DNA from: an uncultured Thermoleophilia bacterium
Lineage (GTDB): Bacteria > Actinomycetota > Thermoleophilia > Gaiellales > Gaiellaceae
DNA: 64,000 nucleotides
Direction: 5' to 3'
NCBI GenBank assembly: GCA_963722035.1
Contig: CAVRLG010000001.1
Span: 8,703-72,702, forward strand
Shown: one piece after another, positions 1,688 through 41,153 of the stretch
Layout: each line of letters opens with the position of its first letter
Position numbering within the stretch: position 1 is the first letter of the stretch
Program-made: the position numbers and the translations under genes
Notes under the pieces: generated by a model
Told to the model about the DNA's origin: nothing
Database searches by the model: none
What the model saw: only the letters and a program-made list of their open reading frames with translations

Positions 1688-1706
1688 TGAGTCCGTTGCG
1701 AGCGTC

Positions 1707-2601
1707 GTGAGCACCAGAGATGCGTCCTTCACGGTTGTGCTCGCGACCTACGAGCGGGCGGACGCCCTCGAGCTCGTCCTCCGGGCGCTTGCCGAGCAAG
1801 GCGAAGAGCCATTCGAGGTGGTCGTAGCCGACGACGGGTCCGGCGAGGAGGTCGCGACCGTCGTCGAGAGGTGGCGCGAGCGCATCGACCTCCGCCACGT
1901 GTGGCAACCGAACGAAGGTTTCCGGAAGGCTCGTGTGCTCAACCTGGCAGCGCTCGCGGCCCGCGGTGACTACCTCGTCTTCCTCGATGCGGACTGCGTG
2001 CCGCGCCGCGGTTTCATGCGAGCGATCCGGAAGGGTGCTATCCCGGGCTGGTTCCTCTCGACCAAACGAATCATGCTCCGAGAGAGCTTCTCGGGTCACG
2101 TCTTCGTAAGAGGCTCTGATCTGGCGATGGTCGGCCCTCGGGTGGTTCATCCGAGCACCCCGAGAGGTCGGCAGGCCCGGGTATCTCCTATCCGCACGCG
2201 ATCGTCGGCGACCCTGGCGCGCAGGCCAGACGGAGTTCGCGCCGCCGGGTCTTGCGTACTCGCTCGTGGGCGTCTTCCGTGCGGATTTCGAGAGGGTCAA
2301 CGGATACGACGCTCGCTGCCAGCGAGTCGACGATGGTGAGGATCAGGATCTTGCGATACGGCTACGCAGAAGCGGGCTTCGCTGCGGATGGCCCGGGCCG
2401 GCATCGACCGTGCTCCATCTTTGGCATTCGCCCCGCTCGTACAACACGGGCAGTCGTCTCCCACTCTTCCGCAGGACCGCGATTGATGACCGCGTCCAAG
2501 CGGTCGTCGGGCTGCGCGAGCTCGAAGCCGAGCTCGCGGCTCAGGTGAGCGCGAACCGCGTGGGCGGGTCGAGCTCCTCGAGCGATCCCGTGAAGAGGTA
2601 G
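1707..2601 (+). pseudogene. GT2 glycosyltransferase, tandem paralog of 794..1687, one +1 frameshift near 2120
   Basis: Frame 0 reads SFTVVLATYERADALELVLRAL..FEVVVADDGSG..YLVFLDADCVPRR. After about 2120 the sense continues in frame 1 (WRWSALGWFIRAPREVGRPGYLL...FRADFERVNGYDA...LHLWH, ORF 2266..2601). GTG 1707 is the first start after the upstream TAG at 1685-1687. Confidence 0.65.
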
Positions 2602-3479
2602 CTGCGCTCCGAAAGCGCTGCCAGCGACGCGGGTGACGAGTAGGTCGCCGTCGCCAACACGCGTGGAGCCGTCGTCGCAAATCCTCCCCGGTGAAAGCCC
2701 GCGGTATTGCAGAAGAGCAGCGTGCCCTTCGGCCCGGTGAACGTCTTGACAGCCTCTCCGGGGATACGGCTCTCGAGATCGTCCTCGGGCGGATAGTTGT
2801 CGCCGAGGGGTCGCCACGGCCAGGCATTGCCGTAGCGACCACCAGGGGCGCTCCCCGGCACGTACTGGAAGGGTCCGACGCCTTCATCGACGTCTACGAG
2901 GTAGAGAAATGCCTTCAGGAGGTGCTTGTCGTTGAAGTCGCGGTGCCAGCGCTGGGATGCGATCCGCGCTGCCTCCTCGGGCTGCGGCACGGAGTACCAC
3001 ATGTCCACGTACTCGAGCTTCGACCACAGCCCGAGGTAGGTATTGGCCAGGTCGAGCATCCGTCTGGAAGCACAAGCCCGAAACCACGGGTCGCCGAGAC
3101 CCAGTTCCACGCCGTAACTGTGCAGCCGAACGACGAACTCCTTGCCCGCCCGCACACGCAGCCCTTCGCGGTCGCCGGCGAGGGCGGCTTCCGTCTCGGC
3201 AACGAACTGGCTGCACTGCGCCTCGATGTCGCGCCATGCGTCACCCTCGGGGAACAGGTCTTCGAAGGTCAGCAGCGAGTAACCGTCGGCGTCGAGCTCG
3301 GTGACAATCCGCTGCTGGACGTCGTCGAGCTCAGGGCGGGCGCCGGTGAAGTACCGGCGGCTGCTTCGGTTCGAGAGAACGCGATCGTGCAGCGTGTACG
3401 TCGCTCGAATCCCACGCCGTTCGAGCGCTGTCGCGACGTGGTTGACCCGCGCTGCGAATCGTGTCTTCGTCCTGTGCAC
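2541..3479 (-). CDS. Fe(II)/2-oxoglutarate dioxygenase, PhyH-like
   Basis: Intact 312-aa ORF. HxD motif in QRWHRDFND and a distal His in NTAGFHRGG, with spacing typical of the PhyH/2OG oxygenase fold. Motif-level call only. Confidence 0.7.
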   Translation of the reverse strand: MHRTKTRFAARVNHVATALERRGIRATYTLHDRVLSNRSSRRYFTGARPELDDVQQRIVTELDADGYSLLTFEDLFPEGDAWRDIEAQCSQFVAETEAALAGDREGLRVRAGKEFVVRLHSYGVELGLGDPWFRACASRRMLDLANTYLGLWSKLEYVDMWYSVPQPEEAARIASQRWHRDFNDKHLLKAFLYLVDVDEGVGPFQYVPGSAPGGRYGNAWPWRPLGDNYPPEDDLESRIPGEAVKTFTGPKGTLLFCNTAGFHRGGFATTAPRVLATATYSSPASLAALSERSYLFTGSLEELDPPTRFALT

Positions 3480-6791: not shown

Positions 6792-7854
6792 CGTTGCTCG
6801 CGGAGGACGCTATGCGCGGGCCGGCGCGCGCTGGGCGCGCCTGCTCGCGGCGCGCAAGGGAACGCCCGGTACTCGCGTCTTCTACGGTCACGATCGCGTT
6901 CCCGCGCCGGGGGAGCGCGTAGCCGGTGGCACTGCCAAGGCGCAGAAACTCAACGAGCACTTCCCGAACAGTCCGACCGACTTCTCTCTGCTGTATCTCG
7001 GGTCGACGTGGCTTCCGCGCGATCTGAGGCCGTTGGCGTCGCTCGCTCGACGCCGAGGTGCTTCGATCGTGGTCAACCAGGACGGCGTCGCCTACCCCGG
7101 CTGGGCCGGAGCGAGAACGGACGAGCTGAACCGACCACTGAGGCAGGCGCTGCTCGCCGCCGATCACGTGCTCTATCAGAGCGACTTCTCGAAGCACTCC
7201 GCCGATCTGTTCCTCGGTGAGCCGAACGGAACGTGGGAGGTCCTGTACAACGCCGTCGATGTCGATCGGTTCACGCCGGCAGAACGGCCGCCGACAGGAG
7301 GCCCGATCCTGCTCCTCGGCGGCGACCAGACACAGGCATACAGGGTCGAGCTTGCGCTCCGCGTGCTGGCCGAGCTCGTCCCGAGTCACCCCGACGCACA
7401 GCTCCTCGTCACCGGGCGCCTCGTGGCTTCTCCGGACATGCTCGTCGAGGAGCTCGGGCTCGGCGGCCGCATTCACTTGCTCGGCGAGTACGCCCAGCGT
7501 GATGCGCCGGGGATCTTCCGGCGCGCGCAACTCCTCCTGCACACCAAGGTGAACGATCCGTGCCCGACGCTTGTCGTCGAGGCGATGGCCTGCGGGTTGC
7601 CGGTCGTCCATCCTGCGAGCGGAGGCACGGTCGAGCTCGTCGGCGACGTAGGCGGAATCGGCGTACCGCACCCCGACGGCTGGGAACTGGATGAGCCACC
7701 TACGCCGGACGCGCTCGCTGCCGCGGTCGAGCTCGTGCTCGACGATCTGCCAACGTACTCAGCCGCCGCCCGTGCAAGAGCCGTCGAGAGCTTTTCGCTC
7801 GACCGCTGGCTCGACCGTCACCGGGAGCTCTTCGAGCGACTCGTCCGGCGATAG
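6778..7854 (+). CDS. Glycosyltransferase family 4
   Basis: Intact 358-aa ORF. Motif LLLHTKVNDPCPTLVVEAMACGLPVVHPASGGTVELV. Confidence 0.88.
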   Translation: MSRIDVARGGRYARAGARWARLLAARKGTPGTRVFYGHDRVPAPGERVAGGTAKAQKLNEHFPNSPTDFSLLYLGSTWLPRDLRPLASLARRRGASIVVNQDGVAYPGWAGARTDELNRPLRQALLAADHVLYQSDFSKHSADLFLGEPNGTWEVLYNAVDVDRFTPAERPPTGGPILLLGGDQTQAYRVELALRVLAELVPSHPDAQLLVTGRLVASPDMLVEELGLGGRIHLLGEYAQRDAPGIFRRAQLLLHTKVNDPCPTLVVEAMACGLPVVHPASGGTVELVGDVGGIGVPHPDGWELDEPPTPDALAAAVELVLDDLPTYSAAARARAVESFSLDRWLDRHRELFERLVRR

Positions 7855-12123: not shown

Positions 12124-13247
12124 TCGCCAAGGCGGTGTTCTGGGGCTCGCTCAAAGCCCTCGCCTGGACACACGCGGGTTACCCGGCGGCAATGGGAGTG
12201 CTCGCGCGCCTCCGGCCGAGACCGGTGAGCAAGGCGGAGATTACCCCGACCGTTGCGCTCATCGTCTCCGCGCACGACGAGGAGGCGGTGATCAGGCGGC
12301 GTGTCGAAAACTTGCTCGAGCTCGACTATCCGCCGGAGCGGCTCGAGATCGTCGTCGCCTCCGACGGTTCGACGGATCGGACAGATGCGATCGTCAACGA
12401 GATCGCAGCACGCGAGCCACGTGTTCGGCTACTCGAGTGCCCGCGCGAGGGAAAGGTGGCCGCCCAACATCGCTCCGTTCGCGAGACCTCGAGCGACGTC
12501 CTCGCTTTCACGGACGCAAACACGGAGTGGAAGCCCGACGCCCTCCGGATGCTCGTTCGGAACTTGGCAGACCCCGAGGTCGGCTACGTGTGCGGGCAGC
12601 TCCGGCTCGAGAGCCCTGACGGCGCGAACATGGAGGGCAGCTACTGGCGCTACGAGATGTGGGTTCGCGCGCAGGAATCCGAGTGCAGCTCGATCACGGC
12701 GGGCAACGGCGCGATCTATGCGGTGCGGCGGGACGCATACGTGGAGGACGACCCGAAGTTCGGCCACGACTTCGGCTTTCCGTACCTGATGGAGCAGGCG
12801 GGTCTTCGGGCCGTGTACGAGCCCGAAGCAGTCGCTGTAGAGAAGCCGGCCGCAGAGCCCGAGGACGAGTACGGTCGCAAGGTCCGCACGATCGCACGGG
12901 CTCTCGGGCACATCCTCACCGGCCGGATCTTCCGACGCACGCGGCCGCTGTACATGGCCGAGCTGATCTCCCACCGCGTGCTGCGCTACTCGACGGGCCT
13001 CCTGCACATCGCGCTGTTCGTCTCGAACGTCGCTCTCCTTCGCCGTGCGCCTTTCTACCGGCTCTTCTTCGCGCTCCAGCTCGGCGGGCTCGGTCTGGCA
13101 GCTGCCGGACGAGCGCGCCTCCCGATCCCCGGAGCTGGGCTTGCCTACTACTACTACGTCGTGACGAAGGCGACGGTCGCCGCGCTCGTTGGGTACCTGC
13201 GCTCGGGCACGCCGCAGATGTGGGACAAGGCCAAGGGGACGCGCTGA
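12120..13247 (+). CDS. Membrane-anchored GT2 glycosyltransferase (synthase-like)
   Basis: GTG 12120 overlaps the upstream stop (GTGA). ALIVSAHDEEAVIRRRVENLLELDYP, LEIVVASDGSTDRT, FTDANTEW. C-terminal hydrophobic helices (LLHIALFVSNVALL, FFALQLGGLGLAAAG). Confidence 0.8.
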   Translation: MIAKAVFWGSLKALAWTHAGYPAAMGVLARLRPRPVSKAEITPTVALIVSAHDEEAVIRRRVENLLELDYPPERLEIVVASDGSTDRTDAIVNEIAAREPRVRLLECPREGKVAAQHRSVRETSSDVLAFTDANTEWKPDALRMLVRNLADPEVGYVCGQLRLESPDGANMEGSYWRYEMWVRAQESECSSITAGNGAIYAVRRDAYVEDDPKFGHDFGFPYLMEQAGLRAVYEPEAVAVEKPAAEPEDEYGRKVRTIARALGHILTGRIFRRTRPLYMAELISHRVLRYSTGLLHIALFVSNVALLRRAPFYRLFFALQLGGLGLAAAGRARLPIPGAGLAYYYYVVTKATVAALVGYLRSGTPQMWDKAKGTR

Positions 13248-13828
13248 ACCGCGTAGCCGACGTCGTCGTTGCCGCAACCGGCCTCGTTCTGACGAGCCCG
13301 ATCCTCGGAGCCGCTGCGCTGGCGACCAAGCTCGACGGCGGCGGGCCGGTTTTCTATCGCCAGACGCGTGTCGGCAAGAACGGCGAGGACTTCGAAGTCC
13401 TGAAGCTGCGCTCGATGGTCGTGGGAGCGGAACGCCTTGGCGCCGGGTTTGCGGTCGACCAGGGCGACGCTCGAATCACGCGCGTCGGCCGGTTGCTCCG
13501 GAGAACCTCGATCGACGAGCTTCCCCAGCTTTGGAACATCCTTCGAGGCGACATGAGCGTGATCGGGCCGCGGCCGACGCTTCGGTATCAGGTCGAGCAG
13601 TACGACGAGAGCCAGCGCCGCCGGCTCGACGTCAGGCCGGGGCTCACGGGTTGGGCGCAGGTTCACGGACGCGCATCTCTCCCGTGGGCCGAGCGAATCG
13701 AGCTCGACGTCTGGTACGTCGACCATCGTTCGCCGCGCATCGATCTGGAGATCCTGCTCAGAACGCCGCTGGCTCTCTTCCGTGGGACGTATCGCGGTGC
13801 GACGGGGGGCTGGCACCGAGAGGGCTAG
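13220..13828 (+). CDS. Small phosphoglycosyl transferase (bacterial sugar transferase, PglC-like)
   Basis: FYRQTRVGKNGEDFEVLKLRSM, IDELPQLWNILRGDMSVIGPRP, PGLTGWAQV. Start is uncertain; GTG 13220 is the nearest in-frame start before the N-terminal helix ADVVVAATGLVLTSPILG. Confidence 0.85.
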   Translation: MGQGQGDALNRVADVVVAATGLVLTSPILGAAALATKLDGGGPVFYRQTRVGKNGEDFEVLKLRSMVVGAERLGAGFAVDQGDARITRVGRLLRRTSIDELPQLWNILRGDMSVIGPRPTLRYQVEQYDESQRRRLDVRPGLTGWAQVHGRASLPWAERIELDVWYVDHRSPRIDLEILLRTPLALFRGTYRGATGGWHREG

Positions 13829-13839
13829 GGGAGACCCTG

Positions 13840-14004
13840 AGAACTCCGTTCAGAATGAGCGACCATGTCGCGATGCGGCGCTGGACGCCGTGATGCGGCG
13901 TCCTCAGTCGCGCCAATATTCAAGAATATTGGCGCTCCCTGCGTCCTTGCCTCACGGCGTCCATCATCCGCCTCGCGACGGGCGATCATCCTCAACGAAG
14001 TTCT
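13840..14004. repeat. Palindromic intergenic element, copy 1 of 3
   Basis: Core 13854..13991 (AATGAGCGACCATGTCGCGA...CTCGCGACGGGCGATCATCC) aligns along its length with 31070..31209 and 40089..40224. Outer arms AGAACTCCGTTCAG / CTCAACGAAGTTCT pair with each other. Apical hairpin GCGCCAATATT-CAAG-AATATTGGCGC. Confidence 0.85.
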
Positions 14005-15182
14005 TTGCCGCGAGCAGCGACCGGTAGAGCCGATCCACGTCGTCCACGAGGCGCGAGACCGCGTAACGCTCGAACATATGCGAGCGTCCGGACTCGCCGA
14101 ATCGAGCCCTGAGCTCCGGGTCTTCGGCGAGCTGCGCGAGGCGGTCAGCGGCGCCCTCGGTGTCACCGGCCTCGACGAGGAAGCCGTCGACGCCGTCTCG
14201 CACGACATCGGGAACGCCCCCGACCCGGTTTGCGACGACTGGCGTGCCTGACGCGAGTGCCTCGATGGCACTCACCGGCGTTCCCTCGTTCACCGACGGG
14301 AGGACGAACGCGTCGAACAGGCGGTAGTAGCCGGCGACGTCGGACTGGTAGCCGACGAAGTAGCAGGCGCGTGCGATGCCGAGGTCGTGCGCGAGCTGCT
14401 CCAGCCGCTCGCGGTCGGGTCCGTCTCCGACCATGCAGAGGACGGCGTCGACTGCCGCGCTCGCGCGTCGCGCGCACGATCTCGAGCACGGCGCCGGTGT
14501 CCTTGACGCCCGTCATTCGCCCGACCCAGCCGATGACGAACGCTTCGAGCGGAATGCCGTAGAACCGGCGGTAATCGTGGTCGGCGGTCGGGTCGCCGAG
14601 GCGATCCTCGAGAGGGATGCCGAGGCGGATCACGGCGAACTTGTCTCGAGGGGCGACGCCGTGCTCGACGAGCTCGTCTCGCACCTCCGGGCTGACGGCG
14701 ATGAGCACATCCGAGCTGCGGGCGAGGCTTCGCTCGACCTGCCGGAAGAACGCAGTCCTGCCGGGCCCGAAGTAGCCCTTGAGGACATGTCCGTGGAAGG
14801 TGTGGACGACGATGGGAGGCCGCGCACTTCCAGCGAGAAGTGCCGCAGCCCGTGCGATCGCCCCGGCCTTCGCTGTGTGCGTGTGCAGGATGTGCGGGCG
14901 CTCACGGCGGATCAGTGCGGTCATATGTCGAACCGACCTGGCGTCGTGTAGCACCGAGACCTCACGTTGAAGCTCCGGGATGCTCACGACGTCGACTCCG
15001 AGCCGCTCGGCGAGGAAATCCATCGAATCCTCCCCTCGTGCGAGGCTGCCCGCGACGAGCGTCGTGTGGTAACCGCGCGTCTCCAGCCCGGCGGCGAGGT
15101 TGGCGACGTGGATCGCCGGGCCGCCCATGTTCAACCGGGCGATGACACGAAGGATGCGGATCGGCTCGGCGGTCGCGGGCAC
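13964..15182 (-). pseudogene. Glycosyltransferase family 4, one +1 frameshift near 14455
   Basis: ORF 14163..15182 is GT4-like up to GVKDTGAVLEIVRA. The sense resumes in ORF 13964..14434 (VDAVLCMVGDGPDRERLEQLA...LPSVNEGTPVSAIEALASGTPVVANRVGGVPDVV). The last about 9 codons and the stop lie inside repeat copy 1. Confidence 0.7.
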
Positions 15183-22118: not shown

Positions 22119-22816
22119 CGAGGCACCTCGGCCACGACATGGAAATTCGCGAAGAGCGTTCCGTGACCTGGAGTGCGGAGGCGCGAAGAATGGGCGTCGA
22201 TCGTCTCCGCGGTCATGTTCAGCGCAGCGACGAGAGGATGCGCGAGCGCACCCAGACGCGCGCGGCGAAGAGTGAGGCTGACGTTGAGCGAGATGATCAT
22301 CGCGATACAGGCGGTCGTGCCAGAAGCGGGTGTCACCGTAACGAAGGCGCCTGCCGCGTTCCCCACGAACAGCTTCTCCAGGCCGGCGTGAGTCCACCGC
22401 CAGTAGTCGGTGGGGGAAGGGTGGTATGGCATTACACCATGTGTCGAAGCCAGCACGCGGCCCCCTGCGGCGGTTACGCGTATGAGCTCGCGGATTGCCT
22501 GTGCAGGGTCGTCGCAGTGCTCCAGCACCTGATTACAGAGGACGATGTCGAAGCTTCCATCCTCGACCGGCAGCGCCTCGACGGAGCCTCGCAGCTCGGC
22601 GTGTGGGTTCGCGACGGGGTCAACGCCGACGTACGACGCGGAGTACCGTGCGAAGAGTGGCTGGTACGGCTTCAATCCGCAGCCGACGTCCAGCACGCGG
22701 TAGCGCCCGAGCGCGCGGTGCGCTTCCTCGGCCTGTTCGCGAAGCCAGCGGACGAGTGGCGCCCGCACTGCGTATGTCGGCATCGAGCGGGGCGGGTCGA
22801 GGTACGCGTCAGCCAC
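22115..22816 (-). CDS. Class I SAM-dependent methyltransferase
   Basis: YRVLDVGCGLKPYQPLF, FDIVLCNQVLEHCDDP, AAGGRVLAST. Confidence 0.85.
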   Translation of the reverse strand: MADAYLDPPRSMPTYAVRAPLVRWLREQAEEAHRALGRYRVLDVGCGLKPYQPLFARYSASYVGVDPVANPHAELRGSVEALPVEDGSFDIVLCNQVLEHCDDPAQAIRELIRVTAAGGRVLASTHGVMPYHPSPTDYWRWTHAGLEKLFVGNAAGAFVTVTPASGTTACIAMIISLNVSLTLRRARLGALAHPLVAALNMTAETIDAHSSRLRTPGHGTLFANFHVVAEVPR

Positions 22817-24194
22817 CGGTCTCCTCTTCGACGATCGCTGCCCCGGCTGCTGCGAGGCCGAGCAACAAGCAAGTCGCCGCTTGTAACGGGATACCGGCGA
22901 CGATCCCGAGCGAGGCCCACTCTCCCGCCAGTGTCAGGAGCGCACACAACACCGTGAGGCCTGCGCCTGCGGCCCAGGGGTTCGCCGCGTAGATCACCGT
23001 GCGCCACGCGAGGATCAGCCCCGCCGCGCCGACTGCGAGCAACAGCAGCAGCCCGATCACACCGGCGTCGGCAAGCATCTGGATGTAGAGGTTCTGGACG
23101 CCCCACTCGCGACCTTCCGCCGGGAAGGCGAGGTCGACGACGTCCGGGAAGCGCTCGCGCGCGTCGGCGATGTAGGGCTCGAAGACCTCCGGCCGGGAGG
23201 ATCGTTGCCAGCCCACGCCCACGATCGGGTCGTCCTGCCAGATCCGCAGCCCGATATATGCGAGCACCGTGCGCTGGGAGTACGTCTCGACGCCAACGGG
23301 GGGCTCGTCGCCACGGACGCCCACGAAGCGCAAGAAGTCCTCGAGTGCGTCGCCCCGAACTGCCGCCACCCCGCCGCCGACCACCGCGACGACCACCGCG
23401 AGCGCGAGCACGCGGCGCCCCGAAGGAGAGAAGCGACCGCGTGCGGCGAGCCAGAGAACTGCCGCCCCAAGCGCGAGTCCCGCGGCAGCCGCCAGGGAGC
23501 CGGCAAGAATGAGGCCGAGCACCCCGGCCAAGAGCGCAATCGTGAAGAGCGTGCTCGCGGGAATCCGTCGTCTTCCCGCCATGATCCCTGCCGCACCCAG
23601 CGAGACCCCGATCGCGGCCAGCGCCGCGAGGTCATGGTGACCGAGGAACGACGGTTGGCGCCAGCCCGCGTTCCAGGCCCCGAAGATGTCCAGGCCGAAG
23701 AACTGGAGCAGCGCGACGCCCACTGCGACGGCAGCCCAGAGGACGAGGCCACCGAGGAGGATCGTCAGATCTTCGGCGCGGCGTACTAGGAGCGGCACGA
23801 CAAGGGCAAGGAGCGCGTACTCCCCGAGCTTGAGGAAGCTCACCAGGTGGTCGTCGAAGAGGGCGTCGTCCTGCGACGCCGGCCGAAATGTCGCAAACGC
23901 GAGCCATAGGAGCAGCGCAATCCCTGGGAACCAGAGGAGTCGAGCCGGCTGGAGGCGGGCGAGCCCGAGCCGCGCTGCCGCGACCGCTGCGGCAACGACG
24001 ACAACGAGAACGGCCGCATCCGAGAGCCTGACGTCGACCGAAGTGGAGCCCACGTCGACCGCGAGCTCGGGCTGATAGCGCTCGTGGGAGAACAGGAACG
24101 GCAGCGATGCCGTGAGTACGAGCGCTCCTAGGGCGTCGCGGTCGATGAGGTGGCGGACCCGGGGTCGCATGAACGAGCTTTCGCCGGTTGCCAC
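22809..24194 (-). CDS. O-antigen ligase/polymerase-like polytopic membrane protein (Wzy_C-type)
   Basis: About 10 or more hydrophobic helices with a large loop, RTVLAYIGLRIWQDDPIVGVGWQRS, resembling the O-antigen ligase family signature. The start may be the internal M at 24170. Confidence 0.72.
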   Translation of the reverse strand: MATGESSFMRPRVRHLIDRDALGALVLTASLPFLFSHERYQPELAVDVGSTSVDVRLSDAAVLVVVVAAAVAAARLGLARLQPARLLWFPGIALLLWLAFATFRPASQDDALFDDHLVSFLKLGEYALLALVVPLLVRRAEDLTILLGGLVLWAAVAVGVALLQFFGLDIFGAWNAGWRQPSFLGHHDLAALAAIGVSLGAAGIMAGRRRIPASTLFTIALLAGVLGLILAGSLAAAAGLALGAAVLWLAARGRFSPSGRRVLALAVVVAVVGGGVAAVRGDALEDFLRFVGVRGDEPPVGVETYSQRTVLAYIGLRIWQDDPIVGVGWQRSSRPEVFEPYIADARERFPDVVDLAFPAEGREWGVQNLYIQMLADAGVIGLLLLLAVGAAGLILAWRTVIYAANPWAAGAGLTVLCALLTLAGEWASLGIVAGIPLQAATCLLLGLAAAGAAIVEEETGG

Positions 24195-24264: not shown

Positions 24265-25563
24265 ATGGCTCCCCGCCTCCTACGCCGCCGGTCTGCGACG
24301 GCCGCGTGGATCTACGCTTCGGTCGCGTGCGGGATCGTCGGGACGATCGTCGCGGCGCGTGTCCTCGGGCTCGACGAGTTCGGCGTCTTTGCCACGGCGC
24401 TTGCGGCTGTCGGCTTCTTCCAGGTGCTTCTCGACCTCACTGTCGAGGAATCGCTCACGAAGTACGGCTTCAGGTACGTCGCGGCGGAGGACTGGGGGCG
24501 ACTGCGACGGCTCTTCCGGCAGATGCTCTTGCTCAAGATCGTCGGCGGCGCCCTCGCGACCGTCATCGTCGTCGCTCTCGCACCGTACGCTGACTCGCTC
24601 TTCGACGCCGATGGGCTCGAGCAGGCACTTCTCGCCGCCGCTCTCCTGCCGCTCGTCCAATCCACCGAGAACGTCGGCGCGACTGTCCTCCTGCTTCACA
24701 GTCGATACGACCTGCGCGGCGTCTATCAGGCCGGCTCGGCCGGGCTGAGGCTGCTCGCGATAGTGATCGCCGCTCCGCTTGGCGTCACTGTAGCCCTCGT
24801 CGCGATCGTCGTCGCGCAGGCAATCTCCACTGTCGCGATCTCGGTGGTCGGTGTCGTCGCGCTTCGGCGTTTTCCGTCCGCGCCTGCCCGAAGGCTCGGC
24901 GAAGACGTCCCAGGCATTCGCTCGTTCGTCATCCAGTCGAGCTTGGCGACGGGTGTTATCTCGCTCCGGACGACGCTCGTCCCACTCGTGCTCGGCATCG
25001 TCGCCGGCCCGACGCAGGTCGGTCTTCTCCGGGTCGGCCAGACTCCGCAAACCGGGTTTGCGGCCGCGAGCTCGCCGGCGCGACTCATGCTCATGACCGA
25101 GCAGACCCGCGACTGGGAGAGAGGCGAGCGGACGCGCATTCTCGCGGGTGTACGGAGCTATACGAAGTGGGCCGGCGCCGTCATGGTCGTTGCGGTGCCG
25201 ATCTTCTTCGTTGCCATGCCCTGGCTCGTCGAGACAGTCTTTGGCTCGGAGTACGGCGGTGCGGTTGACGCTGCGAGAGTCATCCTCCTTGCGGCCGCGA
25301 TCCATTTCGCGCTCGGGTGGACGAAGACGCTGCCTGTGACCATCGGGCGACCACGCTTGCGGATCGTCACGCATGGACTCGAGACGCTGGTTGCCATCCC
25401 GCTCGTCGCGGTGCTCGGTGCCGAATGGGGTGCGACCGGCGCCGCGGTGGCGGTGCTCGCATCCACGATTGTGTTTGCCGCGGCCTGGCTGGTCGTCATC
25501 GTTCGATTGCGCGCCGAGGTCGCCGCAGCCGAGCGCTCGGGCGAAGCGGCGTTCCAGCAGTGA
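24265..25563 (+). CDS. wzx: Wzx-type (MOP/PST family) oligosaccharide flippase
   Basis: Intact 432-aa multi-TM ORF. N-terminal pattern LGLDEFGVFATALAAVGFFQVLLDLTVEESLTKYGF and 12-TM-like hydrophobicity. Confidence 0.78.
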   Translation: MAPRLLRRRSATAAWIYASVACGIVGTIVAARVLGLDEFGVFATALAAVGFFQVLLDLTVEESLTKYGFRYVAAEDWGRLRRLFRQMLLLKIVGGALATVIVVALAPYADSLFDADGLEQALLAAALLPLVQSTENVGATVLLLHSRYDLRGVYQAGSAGLRLLAIVIAAPLGVTVALVAIVVAQAISTVAISVVGVVALRRFPSAPARRLGEDVPGIRSFVIQSSLATGVISLRTTLVPLVLGIVAGPTQVGLLRVGQTPQTGFAAASSPARLMLMTEQTRDWERGERTRILAGVRSYTKWAGAVMVVAVPIFFVAMPWLVETVFGSEYGGAVDAARVILLAAAIHFALGWTKTLPVTIGRPRLRIVTHGLETLVAIPLVAVLGAEWGATGAAVAVLASTIVFAAAWLVVIVRLRAEVAAAERSGEAAFQQ

Positions 25564-28117: not shown

Positions 28118-29011
28118 ATGCGCGCGCTCCGGGCAATGCAGCTCCTGAAGAACGGCGCCTACAGAGCGCTCGGAGAGGCTGTGGCCGGCATCGACGCGTA
28201 CCCCGGTGAAGCCGATCGCACCCTGCGCGTGCTCATGTACCACAAGGTCAACGACCTCTGGCCGAACCCGATCACGGTTCCGACCGAGGTCTTTGCAGAG
28301 CAGATGTCGCTGCTTGCAGAGCTCGGCTACACGCCCGTGTCGCTCGACGCAGTGCGCGACCACTACCTTCTCCGAACGCCGCTTCCACCTAGGGCGGTAC
28401 TCATCACGTTCGACGACGGCTACCGCGACAACCTCGAGCACGCGCTCCCGATTCTGCGTCGCCACGGATATCCGGCAGTCGTCTTCGTCCCGATCGGGTT
28501 CCTGGATGACGCGTACCCGCTGCCACACGAGGAATCGCTCTACGCCCTGGGTGTCCGCAACCCGACACTCGACTGGGACGAGCTCTCGGAGCTCGAAGCC
28601 GGGGGCGTCCGAATCGAGTCGCACGGGATCGGACACCGACAGCTCTCCCTCCTAGAGCCCGCCGAGGCAGTCCGCGAGATCGCACTCTCGAAGCTTCGTC
28701 TCGAGCAGCGGCTGGGGCGGGAGGTCGAGGCGTTCGCCTTCGTCAAGGGATCGAAGGCCGACTACCGCGTAGAGCACGCCAGCCTCGTCCAGCAGGCCGG
28801 CTACAAGCTTGGCTTCAGCGCTGTCTCCGGAGCCAATGGACCTGGGAGCGACCGCTTCCAGCTTCGTCGATACAACGTCGAACCGTATCCCGCGCGAACT
28901 TTCGAGCTCGTCCTCGGCGGAGCCTGCGACCTGATCTCCGTCAAGGACACCGTGCTCGGCACACGTGCGCGGCGAGCTCTCATGTCCGCGGTCGGAACAG
29001 CGTCGCGGTGA
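28118..29011 (+). CDS. Polysaccharide deacetylase (CE4, NodB homology domain)
   Basis: Intact 297-aa ORF. LITFDDGYRDNLEHALPILRRHGYPAVVFV and ESHGIGHRQL. Confidence 0.88.
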   Translation: MRALRAMQLLKNGAYRALGEAVAGIDAYPGEADRTLRVLMYHKVNDLWPNPITVPTEVFAEQMSLLAELGYTPVSLDAVRDHYLLRTPLPPRAVLITFDDGYRDNLEHALPILRRHGYPAVVFVPIGFLDDAYPLPHEESLYALGVRNPTLDWDELSELEAGGVRIESHGIGHRQLSLLEPAEAVREIALSKLRLEQRLGREVEAFAFVKGSKADYRVEHASLVQQAGYKLGFSAVSGANGPGSDRFQLRRYNVEPYPARTFELVLGGACDLISVKDTVLGTRARRALMSAVGTASR

Positions 29012-30026
29012 GCTTCCAGGTTGTGCCGTACTCGCCCGACCAGCGTGCGGCGCTCGTCGCGCTGCTCGCGCGCGTCGGCACGACGCAGCTCTCCGACGAG
29101 GAGTTCGCGTGGTGGTTCGACCGGAACCCGGCCGGCGAAGGGATCGTCTCGCTCGCGGTCGACGGCAGGGAGGTCGTCGGCGTCGCCGCGATGAGCTTTT
29201 TCCGCACCGTGCTGAACGGAGTCGAGACCCGGCTTGCCATCCCCGTTAACGTGGCGACCGATCCGCGCTATCGGGGCCAGGGCGTTTTCTCGACCCTCGA
29301 GCGCGAGAATGAGGCCGCTGCTGCGTCGGCCGGCTCGCCGCTCACGGTGACCTTCCCCAACGGGGCTTCCTACCCGATCTTCATGAGCCGCCTCGGCTGG
29401 ATCGACCTGCCGAGGCTTCGTCTCTGGGCGCGGCCGCTCCGGGCCGGTGCGGTGGTTCGGTACGCGCTCGGAAGGCCGGGCGAACGGGGTGGGCTGAAGG
29501 CGCCGGATTTGACGCCCACGACCATCCGCGGCCTCGAGGTTCGGCTCGTCGAGCGCTTCGGCACCGAGATGGACGAGCTGGGTCGGCGCGCGGCCACGGG
29601 CTACGGAAGCCACTTCGTCCGCGACGCCGAGTACTTCAACTGGCGGTACCTCGACTCGCCTCGCGACTACCGGTGTTTCGGCGCGTATCGGGACCGCGAG
29701 CTCGTCGGGGCCGCCGTCGTCGGGCACACGTTCAAGCACGGGGTCTCGGCGGGGTTTCTCGCCGATCTCGTCACCGCGCCCGGCGGGAAGTCGGGAAGCG
29801 CGATGCTCTGCTCTCACGCGCCGTCGCCGAGGTGCGGGGAGGCGCGGACGCGCTCGTGCTCCTCCCGCCTCGCTCTCGGGCGGAGCGGCGCACGTTGCTC
29901 CGGGCAGGCTTCGCTCCTACGAACAAGAAGCTTCGCTTCATCGGCAAGACGCTCCACGAGGGTGCCCACGTGGACGAGCGTGCAGACGCGTGGCACTTCT
30001 CCCTGGGCGACTTCGACTTCTTTTGA
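29008..30026 (+). pseudogene. GNAT-like acetyltransferase, one -1 frameshift near 29781
   Basis: Frame 1 is GNAT-like (IPVNVATDPRYRGQGVFSTLE) up to GFLADLVTAPG. The natural C-terminus is in frame 0 (REVGKRDALLSRAVAEVRGGADALVLLPP...WHFSLGDFDFF, stop 30024-30026; ORF 29673..30026). Confidence 0.65.
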
Positions 30027-31074
30027 TGACCAAGCTCGTCTTCATCACCCAGCAGGTCGACCCGGACACCCCGCTCTCGCCGCGACGGTCCCCAAGATTC
30101 GCGCTCTGGCCGACCTCGTCGACGAGGTCGTCGTGCTCGCCGACGGAGCTGCCGATGGAGTCCTGCCCCCCAATTGCCGCGTGCGTGTGTTCCGTGCACG
30201 CCACAAGATCGCCCGCGGCGTACGCTTCGAAGCGGCGCTGTCTCAAGAGTTGAGCGGGCTTCGCGGAGGGGCAGTCGTCGCTCACATGTGCCCGATCTAC
30301 GCAGTCCTCGCTGCACCGCTCGTGCGGCCACTTCACATCCCGCTCGTCCTCTGGTTCACGCACTGGCGGGCGAGCCGGCTCTTGCAGGCGGCAGAGCGTG
30401 CCTCGACCGCGGTCACGTCGGTCGACACGCGCTCGTTCCCTCTCCGCTCGAGAAAGCTGCGGGCGATCGGGCACGGCATCGACATCTCCGAGTTCCAGTG
30501 CTCCACAGCCCGCGATGGCGATGGTCTGCGACTCCTCGCCCTCGGCCGCTACTCGCGTGCGAAGGGCCTCGACGTTGTGTTGCGTGCCGTCGCCGAGGCA
30601 GGAGCGGATGTCGGGCTCGACTTCTACGGGCCGTCGCTCTCCGACGAAGAGCGCGTGCATCGCGGGGAGCTCGAGCGGCTGGCCGTCGAGCTCGGCCTCG
30701 AAGGGCGCGTGGCCTTGGGCGACGCGGTCCCTAGAGCCGAGATCCCGCATCTTTTCGCCACACACGATGCTCTCGTCAACAACATGCGTGCGGGAGCCCC
30801 CGACAAGGTGGTCTACGAGGCAGCCGCTGGATGCTTGCCCGTGCTCGCGTCCAACCCCGTATTCGACTCGCTGCTCGACGAGGAACAGCGCTTCAGCCGC
30901 GAGGATGCCGGGGCTCTTGCGGAACGGATCCGAGCGCTGGCGGAGATGAGCCCGGCAGGTCGCGCCGTGATCGGGCGTCGTCTTCGCCAGCGCGTCGAGG
31001 CCGGGCACTCGGTGCAGTCGTGGGCCCGTGGCATCCTCGACGCGGCAGGTGTCACGGAGCTCGATTCCGAATGA
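30026..31074 (+). pseudogene. Glycosyltransferase family 4, one -1 frameshift near 30067
   Basis: ATG 30026 (TGATG overlap) opens MTKLVFITQQVDPD in frame 2. The rest is in frame 1 (HPALAATVPKIRALADL...VNNMRAGAPDKVVYEAAAGCLPVLASNPVFDSLL). Frame 1 is stop-free from 29008, which produces the 688-aa ORF in the track. Confidence 0.65.
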
Positions 31075-31222
31075 GCGACCATGTCGCGAGGCCGCGCTGG
31101 ACGCCACGATGCGGCGTCCTCAGTCGCGCCCGTATCTACTTCGATGTGGACGCTCCCTGCGTCCTTGCCTCGCGCCATCCATCATCGGCCTCGCGACGGG
31201 CGATCATCCGGAACCGAACTCC
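31056..31222. repeat. Palindromic intergenic element, copy 2 of 3
   Basis: Core 31070..31209. Outer arms GGAGCTCGATTCCG / CGGAACCGAACTCC. Perfect 12-bp stem GTCGCGAGGCCG / CGGCCTCGCGAC. Apical hairpin GCGCCCGTATC-TACTTC-GATGTGGACGC. Confidence 0.85.
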
Positions 31223-32329
31223 ATGACCGGCGACGGCGTCGTACTCCACACCCAGAAGGTCGCCGGCATCTCCGGCTCGGAGGCACATCTGCTCCAGCTC
31301 CTTCCCGATCTTCGAGCCCGGGGGTGGGACGTCCGATTTCTCATGCTGCACGAGGACGAGCCGGGGGCGTGGGAGTTCGCTGACGAGATCCGCGCCCGCG
31401 GTGTGCCACTCGACGATGTCAGGCTTCGAGCGGACGTCGACCCGATGGCATTCGGGGAGGTCGTCGCCCATCTCTCGCGCGTGCGGCCCCGCATCCTGCA
31501 CACACATCTCGTGCACGCCGATGTCTACGGCCAGCTCGCCGGCTCGCTGACTCGGGTGCCACTCCGACTCTCGACGAAGCATGGTTTCAACGAGTTTCGA
31601 GAAGGGCGCTGGTTCGGGCTCGCAGACCGCTCCGTCGGCTCGTTGGCGCACGTTCACATCGCCATCTCTCGAGGTCTGGCCGAGTACCTGGCCGAGACCG
31701 AGGGGTTCGACGCGGAGGACTTCGAAGTCGTCCACTACGGGATCGCATCGTCCGGCACTGCGGCGTCGTACGAAGGCGATGAGCCGCGCCTCGCGTGCAT
31801 CGGCCGCCTGATTCCGATCAAAGGTCATCTCGTCCTGCTGCGCGCGCTTGCGCAGGCGAGGGCTCGCGTACCAGATGTGGTTCTCGACATCGCGGGGCGG
31901 GGGCCGCTCGAGCCAGCGCTCAAGGCTTACGCCCGCGAGCTGGGGCTCGCAGATGCAGTGCGCTTCCTCGGCTTCGTCTCTCCGGTTCAGAGAGCGATCG
32001 AGGACTCGGCGATCGTCGTGGTTCCTTCGCTCGGAGAAGGCTTCGGCATGGTCGCGCTCGAAGCGATGGAGCGAGCGCGCCCGGTGATTGCCAGCGCGGT
32101 CGGGGGCCTGCCCGAGATAGTCGCCGACGACCAGACGGGGCTCGTCGTTCCTTCGGCCGACGCCGACGCGCTCGCTGACGCGATCGTCGCGCTCGCGGGG
32201 AATCTCCCTCGTGCAGCGGCGATGGGGAACGCCGGGCGCGAGCGAGCGCTCGCCCAATTCAGTCCGGAGCAATGCGTGGCGCGGATCGAGAAGCTCTATA
32301 GCGCGGCGCTCGAGCGGGCTGCCGCATAG
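31223..32329 (+). CDS. Glycosyltransferase family 4
   Basis: ATG 31223 is the first base after repeat copy 2. VVLHTQKVAGISGSEAHLL; VPSLGEGFGMVALEAMERARPVIASAVGGLPEIV. Confidence 0.85.
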   Translation: MTGDGVVLHTQKVAGISGSEAHLLQLLPDLRARGWDVRFLMLHEDEPGAWEFADEIRARGVPLDDVRLRADVDPMAFGEVVAHLSRVRPRILHTHLVHADVYGQLAGSLTRVPLRLSTKHGFNEFREGRWFGLADRSVGSLAHVHIAISRGLAEYLAETEGFDAEDFEVVHYGIASSGTAASYEGDEPRLACIGRLIPIKGHLVLLRALAQARARVPDVVLDIAGRGPLEPALKAYARELGLADAVRFLGFVSPVQRAIEDSAIVVVPSLGEGFGMVALEAMERARPVIASAVGGLPEIVADDQTGLVVPSADADALADAIVALAGNLPRAAAMGNAGRERALAQFSPEQCVARIEKLYSAALERAAA

Positions 32330-34577: not shown

Positions 34578-36089
34578 GTGTCCAAGGCCGCACCGCCGGC
34601 GGAGACCCCACGTCCTGCGCCGGTTCAGTCTCTTGCGGGCCGGGACGTTCGAGCGTCCAGGCTCTACCTGCTCTCGCGTGGGCCGATCGTGTCGCTCGTT
34701 CGGAGGACGCTCTCCGTCGCGGCGCTCGTGATCCTCGATGTCGTGGCGCTCGCCCTTGGCATCTATCTCGCGCTCGTCATCCGCCAACTGGTGGCGGGCG
34801 ACGGAGACATCCTCTGGGGCCTGCTCTGGCGCGAGGGCCCGGCCGAGTGGCTGAAGTTCGCCGCTCCGATCACGGTCCTCGTCTTCGCGCAGTCAGGGCT
34901 CTATAGAGAGCGGGAGCGGCGTCCGGGAGCCGGGCGCATCCTCGCCTGTCTCATCGTGGTCGCGTTGATCGTGCTGGCGTTCGGGATCGGTACGGGTTAC
35001 GACTTCACGACCTCCGGGCTCATTCCGACCTCGGTCGTTGTTTCGGCGCTCACCATCGGCCTGTTCAGAGCCGCCTATGAATCCGCGTCGCTGGAGGTCA
35101 TGCGCGCCATGGGCATTCGCCGGCGGGTCGTGCTCGTCGGCGAGGGCGAGAGCCTCAGCCGGCTGAGGCAGTCGTTGGCTGCGGCTCGAGGCGGTCTCAG
35201 CTATGAGTTCGTCGGCGCCGTTGCTCCCGAGCCCGTGCCCGGCATTCGCCTCCTCGGCTCGCGTGCAGAGCTAGCGATCGTCCTCGAGCAGGTGCGGCCC
35301 GACGAGGTGATCCTCGCCGAAGCCGATTTCGACGAGCGCACCGTTCTCGAGGTGGTGGAACAGGCTCATCGCCAGGGAATCAAGGTGCGGCTCGCGCCCG
35401 ATACGACGGAGCTCCTCGTCCAGCGTGGCGAGTACGTCCCGGGCCATGGTGCTCCGCTCTTCGAATTGAGACCGCCGGTCCTCACCGGCGCGGAATGGGC
35501 GGTGAAGAGGGCCTTCGACATCGTGGTCAGCGCGCTCGTCCTGCTTCTTGCGCTGCCGCTCTGGGCTCTGATCGCCCTGGCCGTCAAGCTGGACTCGCGT
35601 GGACCGATCTTCTTCGTCGACAGGCGTATCGGCGTCGGCGAGCGCGAGTTCGGGATGCTCAAGTTCCGCACGATGGTGGCCGAGGCAGCGGCGCTCCAGC
35701 CCGAGCTCGAGGAAGCGAACGAGGCGGAAGGAGCGCTCTTCAAGATCCGCGAAGACCCGCGGGTGACGCGCGTCGGCCGATTCCTCCGCAGATTCTCGCT
35801 CGACGAGATTCCGCAGATCATGAACGTGTTGAAGGGAGAGATGAGCCTCGTGGGGCCGCGACCTCTCCCGCTCCGCGACTACCGGCTCCTCGAGGACTGG
35901 CACCGGGCGCGATATGCCGTTCTCCCCGGGATGACAGGGCTCTGGCAGATCTCGGGCAGGTCCGGCCTGACCTTCGACGATCTCGTCCGGCTCGACTTCA
36001 CGTACCTCGAGAACTGGTCGATCTGGCTCGACATCACCATCATCGCCCGGACGATCCCCGCGGTGATCAGCCGACGGGGGGCGTACTGA
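34578..36089 (+). CDS. Large polyprenyl glycosylphosphotransferase (WbaP-like: TM region + Rossmann-like domain + sugar transferase domain)
   Basis: Intact 503-aa ORF. RRVVLVGEGESLSRL, FFVDRRIGVGEREFGMLKFRTM, LDEIPQIMNVLKGEMSLVGPRP, PGMTGLWQISGRS. Confidence 0.9.
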   Translation: MSKAAPPAETPRPAPVQSLAGRDVRASRLYLLSRGPIVSLVRRTLSVAALVILDVVALALGIYLALVIRQLVAGDGDILWGLLWREGPAEWLKFAAPITVLVFAQSGLYRERERRPGAGRILACLIVVALIVLAFGIGTGYDFTTSGLIPTSVVVSALTIGLFRAAYESASLEVMRAMGIRRRVVLVGEGESLSRLRQSLAAARGGLSYEFVGAVAPEPVPGIRLLGSRAELAIVLEQVRPDEVILAEADFDERTVLEVVEQAHRQGIKVRLAPDTTELLVQRGEYVPGHGAPLFELRPPVLTGAEWAVKRAFDIVVSALVLLLALPLWALIALAVKLDSRGPIFFVDRRIGVGEREFGMLKFRTMVAEAAALQPELEEANEAEGALFKIREDPRVTRVGRFLRRFSLDEIPQIMNVLKGEMSLVGPRPLPLRDYRLLEDWHRARYAVLPGMTGLWQISGRSGLTFDDLVRLDFTYLENWSIWLDITIIARTIPAVISRRGAY

Positions 36090-40101: not shown

Positions 40102-40237
40102 GTCGCCAGGCGGCGCTCGGCGTCCCGATGCTTCGTCCTCAGTCGCGCCCATATTCCGATATGGGCACTCCCTGCGTCCTTGCCTCGTGACGCCGAGCAT
40201 CCGCCTTGCGACGGGCGATCATCCCGAACGGGGCTCC
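40075..40237. repeat. Palindromic intergenic element, copy 3 of 3
   Basis: Core 40089..40224. Outer arms GGAGCCCCGTTCTGG / CCGAACGGGGCTCC. Apical hairpin GCGCCCATAT-TCCG-ATATGGGCAC. Confidence 0.85.
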
Positions 40238-41153
40238 ACGACACCGGCTACTGCGGAGCGGTACCAGGCTACGGTGTGCTCGATCCCCTCTCGCAGCGGT
40301 GTTTTCGCCTCGAACCCGAACAGCTCGCGTGCGCGCGTGGCGTCGACGCTTCGGCGTGGCTGCCCACCAGGCTTCTCGGCATCCCACACGATGCTCCCCG
40401 AGAAACCCGTGGCGGCGGCGATCAGCTCGGCCAGCTCGCGGATGGAGATCTCCTTCCCCGCTCCGAGGTTCACCGGCTCGGGAGCGTCGTAACGCTCCGC
40501 GGCCAGGACGAGGCCCTCGACGCAGTCGTCGACGTAGAGGAACTCGCGCGTCGGCGAGCCGTCACCCCAGAGGATCACCTCGTCTCTCGGTCTCGATCAT
40601 CTTCCGGATCAGGGCAGGGATGACGTGCGACGTCTCGAGGTCGAAGTTGTCCCTCGGGCCGTAGAGGTTGGTCGGGAGGAGGAAGATGCTGTTCAGCCCG
40701 TACTGGTCGCGATACGCTTGGGCGCCGACGAGGACCGCCTTCTTCGCGACGCCATAGGGCGCATTGGTCTCCTCCGGGTAGCCGTCCCAGAGGTCGTCCT
40801 CGTTGAACGGAACCTTGGCGAACTTCGGGTATGCGCAGACCGTCCCGGCGATGACGAGCTTTCGGCGTCGAATGCAGCCGTGCCTGCTCGAGCACATGCG
40901 CGCCCATCGTCAGGTTCGCGTACCAGTAGCGGCCGGGATTTGCCCGGTTGGCGCCGATTCCGCCGACCTCCGCGGCGAGGTGGAAGACGAGCTCGGCGTC
41001 GGCGTCCTCGAACATGCGGGCCGCGTCCTCCATGGAGGTGAGGTCGTAGTCCAATCTGCGCGCGACGACGACCTCGTGGCCGTCGCTCTCGAGCCGCTCG
41101 ACCAGATGCGAGCCGAGGAATCCACCACCGCCGGTGACGAGCACGCGGCTCAC
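40219..41153 (-). pseudogene. fcl: GDP-L-fucose synthase (GDP-4-keto-6-deoxymannose 3,5-epimerase/4-reductase), two +1 frameshifts (about 40867 and 40587)
   Basis: Three ORF pieces: 40575..41186 (VLVTGGGGFLGSHL...[35 protein letters not shown]), 40562..40897 ([42 protein letters not shown]...[28 protein letters not shown]) and 40219..40578 ([17 protein letters not shown]...). GTG 41153 overlaps the upstream stop. The stop codon lies in repeat copy 3. Confidence 0.75.

Follow-up and report, generated by a model that had tools for sequence, protein, structure and literature searches.

Three repeats in a 64,000-nucleotide stretch of DNA from an uncultured Thermoleophilia bacterium (Gaiellales, Gaiellaceae; assembly GCA_963722035.1, contig CAVRLG010000001.1, forward-strand positions 8,703 to 72,702), here called the window and numbered from its first base, are copies of a previously undescribed hairpin-forming mobile element of Gaiellales/Thermoleophilia, about 164 bases long. 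We read the element as a non-autonomous mobile element that resembles REPINs and MITEs (transposable elements of the miniature inverted-repeat type), is built on a new architecture, acts as a folded minus single strand and has arms adapted to gene ends; we put the probability of this reading at about 0.6. The original prediction, made from the letters of the window, had named a REP/Correia/MITE-like mobile palindrome as one possibility, and this is supported by hundreds of copies in many species and by orthologous gene junctions that hold the element in some species and lack it in others.

The three copies lie in one orientation at the predicted positions (13840-14004, 31056-31222, and 40075-40237) and share their core, with a mean column identity of 86%. 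The 17-mer CTCCCTGCGTCCTTGCC occurs three times in the window against 0.36 expected; a family profile run with nhmmer returned exactly three window copies, with E from 1e-29 to 1e-32, and in a repeat survey of the window these were the only long non-coding repeat families. Each copy folds into one long hairpin, as had been proposed (-83 to -101 kcal/mol, z -5.7 to -8.4, 0/200 shuffles as stable); for copy 1 the free energy is -87.7 kcal/mol on the plus strand and -102.5 kcal/mol on the minus strand (minus z -10). When the window copies are laid on the family consensus structure, 22 of its 49 pairs differ between them, 8 by double (compensatory) changes, 8 by one-sided changes that still leave a pair, and 6 with an unpaired cell. 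Two details of the proposed fold, the swapped pair in the inner arms and the conserved apical base beneath a copy-specific, self-complementary top, hold as described; the mirrored changes in the outer arms and the pairing of the next arms inward hold in kind, the pairing being imperfect in both (12/14, 12/14, and 14/14 plus a bulge in the outer arms; 8/10 paired in the next). The copies and their cores are as follows.

13840-14004, plus strand by core orientation (best-pairing strand minus): copy 1, 165 nucleotides (nt), between convergent genes.
13897-13948, plus strand: core of copy 1; 5' loop GGCGTCCTCAGTC at 13897-13909, apical hairpin at 13910-13935, 3' loop TCCCTGCGTCCTT at 13936-13948.
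31056-31222, plus strand: copy 2, 167 nt, in sense orientation between two co-directional plus-strand glycosyltransferase genes.
31113-31166, plus strand: core of copy 2; 5' loop at 31113-31125, apical hairpin at 31126-31153, 3' loop at 31154-31166.
40075-40237, plus strand: copy 3, 163 nt, between two minus-strand genes, the strongly pairing strand being the transcribed one.
40132-40181, plus strand: core of copy 3; 5' loop TTCGTCCTCAGTC at 40132-40144, apical hairpin at 40145-40168, 3' loop at 40169-40181.

At least 240 further loci were collected outside the window (L-numbers below label collected loci that bear the element or its matches). A core pattern made of the two conserved loop strands, searched in a one-genome-per-species collection, gave at least 120 loci; among the matches listed, nearly all came from soil-metagenome-assembled genomes of Gaiellaceae, Gaiellales, Thermoleophilia or Actinomycetota (Actinomycetes), and single genomes often contributed several. 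Because this pattern demanded part of the central module, the family was resampled by arms alone, and the outer arms of one subtype, searched in soil metagenomes, gave at least 120 loci more. With nhmmer, 15 extra copies were found on 120 loci besides the retrieving ones, about 1 per 60 kb, next to 3 in 64 kb for the window; from this density we infer some 50-150 copies per 3 Mb genome. A blastn search of a plasmid collection gave zero element matches. Among 2.9 million viral contigs there was one core match only (L241, IMGVR_UViG_3300026300_000009, 603-649), perhaps from the edge of a prophage or from host DNA wrongly classed as viral; with a single match there, the element is not phage-borne. 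Two element-bearing contigs stand under other labels, in bins assigned to Acidobacteriota (L003, JBDTXY010000426.1) and to a beta-proteobacterium (L055, CAWGCC010000021.1); mis-binning of the former is likely, because its Gaiellales-like ribosomal-protein operon aligns at 77-86% with that of L006.

The repeat had not been recognised as a known RNA family, and Rfam 15 bears this out: the whole window gave 0 matches at the gathering threshold, and the E-value mode, applied to three copies of the family, returned only plant microRNA-precursor hairpins, far under threshold. The best sub-threshold scores, obtained at L031 7403-7570, were 43.8 bits for MIR1437 (gathering 168) and 29.1 bits for MIR1858 (gathering 137), two families that we take to be long hairpins derived from MITEs; the scores are generic long-hairpin likeness, not homology. 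Hammerhead, twister, K-turn, signal recognition particle and 6S cores were considered, and none fits the invariant loops; Rfam gives no support for them. In the literature on repeats of Gaiellales and Thermoleophilia no description of the hairpin family was found, and Actinobacteria go unmentioned in a 2024 review of prokaryotic MITEs.

Measured between the outermost pairs of the outer consensus helix, which were taken as its boundaries, the element is 155-171 nt long (median 164), with about 75 bp per hairpin arm. RNAduplex and a lenient extension alignment were tried for the boundaries and dropped, as both ran past the ends into G+C-rich flanks. At the centre stands a nearly invariant, asymmetric 13x13-nt loop, GGCGTCCTCRGTC / TCCCTGCGTCCTT, whose halves are not mutually complementary; the module runs from a 5' strand GGCGTCCTC(A/G)GTC through the apical stem-loop to the 3' strand, in short form GTCCTCRGTC...CTCCCTGCGTCC. 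The apical stem usually has the base GCGCC/GGCGC and a top specific to each copy. Among the 120 matches listed from the arms-only sample, both loop motifs were exact in 86, one was exact in 28 (the other being generally one position off), and 6 were more diverged; in the same sample the apical stem base co-varies, as GCCCC/GGGGC, GGCC./.GGCC, GTCCC/GGGAC or GCTCC/GGAGC. Loop strands that stay invariant while the stems co-vary imply that sequence is what is constrained in the loops, and pairing in the stems. The arms form subtypes: CTAGGAGGGYTTGGCG...CGCCAARCCCTCCTAG ends occur in 50 of 119 copies, and in several subtypes (TAGTGCCCC.../...GGGGCACTRATG; GGCGACCCCCTCC.../...GGAGGTGATCGCTRATG) the 3' arm has GGAG or GGAGG shortly ahead of a start codon. 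Most subtypes have in common the terminal consensus TA-RGAG...CTCY-TA (hyphens marking the element's ends), and past the first 4 nt the arms differ completely between them. The arm type of the window, GGAGCTCCGTTC.GAATGAGCGACC.../...GGGCGATCATCC.GAACGGAGCTCC, was also found in L067, a Thermoleophilia genome.

The predicted covariation of the arms is strongly supported by 118 copies, aligned as minus strand. The RNAalifold consensus has 49 pairs, 40 of them with double compensatory changes; standard pairs fill 93.2% of the cells, against 74.5% with shuffled partners and 36-45% with slid partners; double-change cells number 1,033 against 317 in shuffles; and the covariation score is 0.539 against 0.198. 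None of 500 shuffles attained the observed values, in a control that is generous because the copies share descent. Many pairs occur in three to five pair types (16-215: GC 49, UA 22, CG 20, UG 17; 105-115: GC 51, UA 38, CG 20).

Wobble pairs had looked mixed as evidence for either strand in the window, a view that the 118 copies do not bear out, clearly favouring the minus strand. Folded independently for each strand, the minus strand was the more stable in 117 of 119 copies, at a mean of -113 against -88 kcal/mol (a difference of about 25). These per-strand folds are free of the bias that affects the count of consensus-pair cells, whose structure was itself predicted on the minus strand and which comprise 4,802 Watson-Crick pairs, with 542 G.U pairs on the minus strand against 72 on the plus. 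Sorted by flanking genes, the G.U pairs keep the same minus:plus ratio (sense 194:31, antisense 60:10, convergent 115:14). Transcription-linked mutation bias or selection on a messenger RNA (mRNA) would track gene direction; as the asymmetry shows no such link, it is a property of the element itself, and it points to a single-stranded form of the element. Read as minus strand, the loop is GGACGCAGGGA / GACUGAGGACGCC; part of it is paired by RNAalifold (CAG with CUG, and two G-C pairs), and the remaining loop positions, in columns that never vary, may form G.A pairs.

Flanks of each copy were compared by BLAST with the other loci to find orthologous junctions, all comparisons being between species. 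Ten or more orthologous junctions contain the element in one species and not in another: rplD-rplW, filled in L120, empty in L006 (where the genes overlap as CAGTGAGCC) and L060; rplW-rplB, filled in both L006 and L120 but empty in L003 as in L060; rpsK-rpsD, filled in L008 and L049, empty in L038 (junction TAATG); rpmJ-rpsM, filled in L045, empty in L038 and L049; rpsR-rplI, filled in L083, empty in L086 and L118; in two further pairs L076 is filled and L057 empty, and L095 filled and L010 empty. The site of copy 1 is empty in L061, whose orthologous glycosyltransferase ends in ...LYRALLSEAAGEKR before its stop; the glycosyltransferase of the window ends in ...LYRSLLAA followed by 13 element-encoded residues, KNFVEDDRPSRGG, and its stop. 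As orthologous junctions, ribosomal-protein operons included, are filled or empty by species, the element is mobile. The earlier suggestion that it had inserted into pre-existing hairpins is refuted: the arms are absent at empty sites and therefore part of the insert, not host hairpins, and arm subfamilies are common to several loci. Other insertions of 94-198 nt at ribosomal-protein junctions are unrelated to the element (L003 at about 2566-2765, minus strand; L120 at about 1698-1793, minus strand), the L003 insert, at rplD-rplW, being a C-rich palindromic block of 198 nt; more than one family of inserts thus seems to occupy the gaps between cistrons in Gaiellales.

The ends of the element coincide with gene signals. 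Of 118 copies, 76 have TA at or beside the left end and 63 have it at the right end, about 50-fold enriched at both boundaries over a background TA frequency of 1.07%; in 43 of 85 cases an upstream stop codon begins 1-2 nt ahead of the first paired base, the stop of a convergent gene falls precisely at the last paired base in 27 of 57, and a downstream start codon begins 2 nt past the element's end in 15 of 53. TA joined to the first G of the element makes a TAG stop on either strand, so that this palindromic dinucleotide doubles as part of a stop codon. It may be a TA target, possibly duplicated, or may reflect selection for restored stop codons; both may apply, because in a genome of about 68% G+C (about 67.5% in the window) few TA sites are harmless, and stop codons are some of them.

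The same ends admit a classical MITE whose double-stranded DNA is moved by a DDE transposase that targets TA, is of the IS630/Tc1-mariner or IS5 kind and is encoded elsewhere, with the GGAG...CTCC tips as inverted repeats and TA as the target-site duplication. We regard this as possible and, on balance, unlikely. It would account for the TA enrichment, for the terminal consensus of most subtypes, and for a TAG that flanks the filled L076 site on both sides and occurs once in the empty site of L057; size, missing coding capacity and copy number are all MITE-like. An ordinary MITE recognised by its terminal inverted repeats is, however, not what was found, for the centre is conserved and the ends are variable: past 4 nt the terminal repeats differ by subtype while the centre is invariant, the reverse of terminal recognition. 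The 7.5-fold excess of G.U pairs on one strand, seen in every context, is left unexplained by a double-stranded mechanism; flanking TA is absent from the window copies and from operon copies of the GGCGACC type; and no full-length insertion sequence (IS) with such ends was found in the 1.57 Mb of collected loci.

Flanking strands were tallied in 134 contexts with the element oriented by its core. Both neighbours lie on the plus strand in 52 and on the minus strand in 15, 28 contexts are convergent, 7 are divergent, and the rest are unclear; in 90 of the 134 the element is preceded by a gene reading into its plus strand. The overall sense bias arises because operon subtypes, with a Shine-Dalgarno sequence and an abutting start codon, always lie inside operons between two plus-strand genes. 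The CTAGGAGGG...CCCTCCTAG subtype is mostly found between convergent genes (19 copies) and is unbiased at co-directional sites (7 against 6). The element sits even in gaps of 0-20 nt between translationally coupled ribosomal-protein genes. It is not an intrinsic (Rho-independent) terminator: no T-run follows the hairpin in the window copies or in the operon loci inspected, and many copies, unlike such terminators, stand inside operons directly upstream of start codons.

A host could keep the element as a structured RNA or a cis-acting mRNA element, transposition being secondary; possible roles are an RNase III site, an intercistronic stabiliser, a terminator without U-tract between convergent genes, or a coupling device that hides the downstream Shine-Dalgarno sequence until a ribosome comes up from the upstream gene. 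Strong covariation and an invariant internal loop, with a possible G.A run on the minus strand, are consistent with this, as are the 90 contexts in which a gene reads into the plus strand and the paired Shine-Dalgarno sequences and abutting starts of the operon subtypes, upstream of rplB, rplW, rpsM and rpsD among others. The rplW-rplB copies of L006 and L120 are 91.5% identical, against 69% (rplW) and 73% (rplB) at the flanking third codon positions; their differences are mostly T/C in the 5' arm facing A or G, with pairing preserved only on the minus strand, and other orthologous copies are less conserved (L008 with L049, 79%). Correia elements are RNase III substrates, hairpins of similar size in Neisseria transcripts, and the transcript hairpins of Correia- and ERIC-type MITEs are cut by RNase III or RNase E and can alter the expression of neighbouring genes (PMC10969869). 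We nevertheless hold a host-kept RNA to be distinctly unlikely: in most co-directional contexts (52 sense against 15) it is the strand antisense to the mRNA that keeps its pairing, the asymmetry is unchanged by gene context, Rfam has no match, and the element is dispensable at essential-operon junctions, because many such junctions are empty in sister species. Of the two alternatives first offered, a structured RNA and a mobile palindrome, the palindrome is the one supported; an RNA role is possible but disfavoured, the better-pairing strand being antisense in most operon contexts.

That the element encodes a small protein, in a frame of about 55 codons running through some operon copies with stop/start overlaps at its ends as in mycobacterial repeats, is very improbable and was rejected: the frame is open across the element in L045, L049 and L120, with TGATG- or TAG-type overlaps, and reads for example MFATPSVTSRTLRVAATLRLAASSVAPVACDYERSLRPCDAGVSHPASTICAEGDR, but the apical loop changes length in steps that are not multiples of three (core match 42 to 53 nt), so that subtypes read the 5' half in different frames (ASSVAP against RVLSRA), substitutions track base-pairing rather than codon position, and in the window the stop codons of neighbouring genes lie within the element.

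No transposase domain was seen among about 30 open reading frames (ORFs) of the window, in agreement with the original prediction. At the collected loci no recurrent neighbour protein was found, the all-against-all clustering of 1,520 locus ORFs giving only common ABC ATPases at variable distances; no partner arm stands at an IS-like spacing, and arm pairs 1-1.8 kb apart, considered as the ends of an autonomous IS, proved to be chance arm-like words within genes. With neither recurrent neighbour, IS-spaced arm nor transposase at the loci, the element is non-autonomous, and its enzyme, if any, is encoded elsewhere.

Among known systems, the element is closest to the REPIN in its working, yet it fails the REPIN definition. 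REPINs commonly show compensatory changes across the hairpin and are predicted to form one long hairpin in single-stranded DNA or RNA (PMC3116915); the element, too, is short, non-coding, multi-copy, extragenic, non-autonomous and persistent within its lineage, with a long hairpin and compensatory changes. TnpA-REP acts on folded single-stranded REP DNA (PMC8266576), which matches the strand-specific pairing seen here. A REPIN, however, consists of two inverted conserved REPs at the ends of a poorly conserved spacer, whereas the element has a conserved centre with non-complementary halves; no GTAG or CGTC tag stands beside its palindrome, no RAYT was found at the collected loci, and REPIN hosts are Proteobacteria and Cyanobacteria, not an actinobacterial order. 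With the Correia/nemis elements of Neisseria and the ERIC/IRU elements of enterobacteria it shares a size of 100-200 bp, inverted-repeat arms and a position between or at the ends of genes; TA flanks are common to it and Correia, and Correia/ERIC-type MITEs, like the element, occasionally extend or replace gene ends. As MITEs are, it is short (median 164 nt), non-coding, multi-copy and insertion-polymorphic; MITEs have conserved terminal repeats akin to those of a parent IS, whereas only RGAG...CTCY is shared here, no parent IS was found in the collected loci, and the centre is invariant with a strong single-strand wobble asymmetry. The mycobacterial interspersed repetitive units (MIRUs), reportedly described by Supply et al. 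in 1997, are likewise found in Actinobacteria, in gaps between operon cistrons, with stop/start overlaps with the flanking genes (as in the operon subtypes of the element) and coupling that can persist; they differ in being direct tandem repeats of 46-101 bp without a conserved hairpin core, the element occurring as single palindromic units. PATE and IS200/IS605 elements have in common with what is proposed for the element that one specific strand moves as single-stranded DNA, that a hairpin and adjacent bases are recognised, and that target duplication is absent or minimal; IS200/IS605 ends are two different small sub-terminal hairpins, whereas the element is wholly hairpin with one central module, and no TnpA or TnpB was found at the collected loci.

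In our preferred reading, that of a mobile palindrome active as a folded single strand, the acting form would most probably be minus-strand single-stranded DNA during the element's own transposition, as in IS200/IS605 and in REP/REPIN with RAYT. The constant central module would be the site recognised by an enzyme encoded elsewhere in the genome, and recognition at the centre would leave the arms free to evolve. Arm subtypes would then render an insertion harmless in a compact genome, between tightly packed or coupled genes: ends of the form TA-GGAG...CTCC-TA would restore a TAG stop for the gene on each side, and the operon subtypes would bring a Shine-Dalgarno sequence, paired inside the outer stem, next to the following start codon, so that downstream translation could stay coupled to the upstream gene through the element's own Shine-Dalgarno sequence.

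Several points weigh against this reading, besides the bias of the wobble count given above. The single-stranded DNA step is inferred from the strand asymmetry alone, and a DDE transposase of IS630/Tc1-mariner type, duplicating a TA target site in double-stranded DNA, would explain the TA enrichment equally well. A tblastn search of the 1.57 Mb of loci with E. coli RayT and IS200 TnpA gave nothing; the genes between inverted copies encode FAH-family, BolA-like and membrane proteins, none transposase-like. All filled/empty comparisons being interspecies, the exact insertion junctions are ambiguous. Lastly, the identity of the rplW-rplB copies suggests that some operon copies are under constraint at the level of the host or undergo gene conversion, neither of which a purely selfish element predicts.

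Variant copies bear on the architecture. In L213, a metagenome contig, the 5' loop is swapped for the exact reverse complement of the 3' loop, giving a perfect palindrome (GCAAGGACGCAGGGAGCGCC...GGCGCTCCCTGCGTCCTTGC) that points to hairpin-templated repair or template switching; in L044 (7679-7728) the central 75 nt or so are deleted and the 5' arm is fused to the 3' arm, the type of deletion expected for long palindromes. A sister family (L008, 1690-1866; L096, minus strand, about 7410-7580 in reverse complement; L141, minus strand, about 510-680 in reverse complement) has TAGTGCCCC...GGGGCACTA arms around another centre, TCCACCCTCGCCCTTG, a stem-loop CCAAGGC..GCCTTGG and CTGCGAACGACTGCGG; the L008 member lies at the rpmJ-rpsM junction, where L045 bears the standard element. 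At the DNA level, these variants show repair templated by the arms, loss of the centre and exchange of modules. Among further metagenome contigs, the 3' loop strand is replaced by CTCGTGAGGCGCGAAGCGCCGAGCGCCATT in L148, L202 and L207, and the 5' loop strand by ...CCCTGGTGTCGCAGTC in L178, L201 and L211; these may be sub-lineages with an altered recognition module. We offer tentatively, as an idea that may well prove wrong, that the element stands for a class of hairpin transposon new to bacteria, in which the small central module, two invariant loop strands about a co-varying stem, would be the sole recognised sequence, on one strand of single-stranded DNA or RNA, cleavage would be set by the base of the hairpin and not by the terminal sequence, and the arms would be interchangeable adaptors carrying a stop codon, a hidden Shine-Dalgarno sequence and a start codon; the same arms with a second centre, in L008, L096 and L141, hint at a modular system of several recognition modules.

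In the window, the copies provide the stop codon, and up to 13 C-terminal codons, for three polysaccharide-synthesis genes. The gene signals at or near the copies are as follows.

13826-13828, plus strand: TAG stop of a sugar-transferase gene (12659-13828, Bac_transf), 11 nt upstream of copy 1.
13964-14005, minus strand: last 13 codons and TGA stop (13964-13966) of a glycosyltransferase, encoded by the 3' arm of copy 1.
31072-31074, plus strand: TGA stop of a GNAT+GT1 gene (29008-31074), within copy 2, in the conserved AATGAGCG of its 5' arm.
31223-31225, plus strand: inferred ATG start of a GT4 gene, immediately following copy 2, sharing the frame of ORF 31028-32329 and placed from the N-terminus MTGDGVVLHTQKVAGISGSEAHLL.
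40219-40221, minus strand: TGA stop of an epimerase/dehydratase fragment (40219-40578), within copy 3, in the conserved GGGCGATCATCC of its 3' arm.
40072-40074, minus strand: inferred TTG start of the next gene, adjoining copy 3; the frame is stop-free, with a G+C fraction at third codon positions of 0.85.

The whole window, 1-64000, is one very large polysaccharide-synthesis region rich in GT1, GT2 and GT4 glycosyltransferases; it also encodes a Wzy-like ligase/polymerase (22809-24194), a flippase (24265-25563), a deacetylase, an ATP-grasp enzyme, several epimerases/dehydratases, and two Bac_transf priming transferases (12659-13828 and 34578-36089), whose common 110 nt are repeat D7. Beside copy 1 the minus-strand glycosyltransferase (13964-15182) is split over two frames, a GT4 N-terminal ORF at 14163-15182 and a GT1 C-terminal ORF at 13964-14434, through either a frameshift mutation or an assembly indel error. 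The epimerase/dehydratase ending in copy 3 (40219-41128, minus strand) is broken into ORFs 40219-40578 and 40562-40897, in different frames and with Epimerase/GDP_Man_Dehyd matches, with a possible third piece at 40910-41128, and the gene to the left of copy 3 seems frame-shifted near 39805; these repeated frameshifts around copy 3 may stem from pseudogenes or from indel errors of long reads.

The Gaiellales rank with the most abundant uncultured actinobacteria of soils, and to our knowledge nothing is known of their mobile DNA. The element would show how a small selfish sequence can colonise a compact, high-G+C genome by carrying replacement stop, Shine-Dalgarno and start signals, and in doing so it rewrites the 3' ends of genes, such as the three polysaccharide genes of the window. 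Its architecture, with a constant centre, co-varying arms and pairing on one strand, reverses that of a normal MITE, and the constant centre gives a sequence handle toward the mobilising enzyme, possibly a new hairpin-recognising transposase. The repeats could be used as a taxonomic marker for Gaiellales contigs, and are likely to cause assembly breaks and wrong calls of gene ends in metagenome-assembled genomes. If a new class of hairpin transposon is indeed at hand, adaptor arms would let the element live even inside ribosomal-protein operons.

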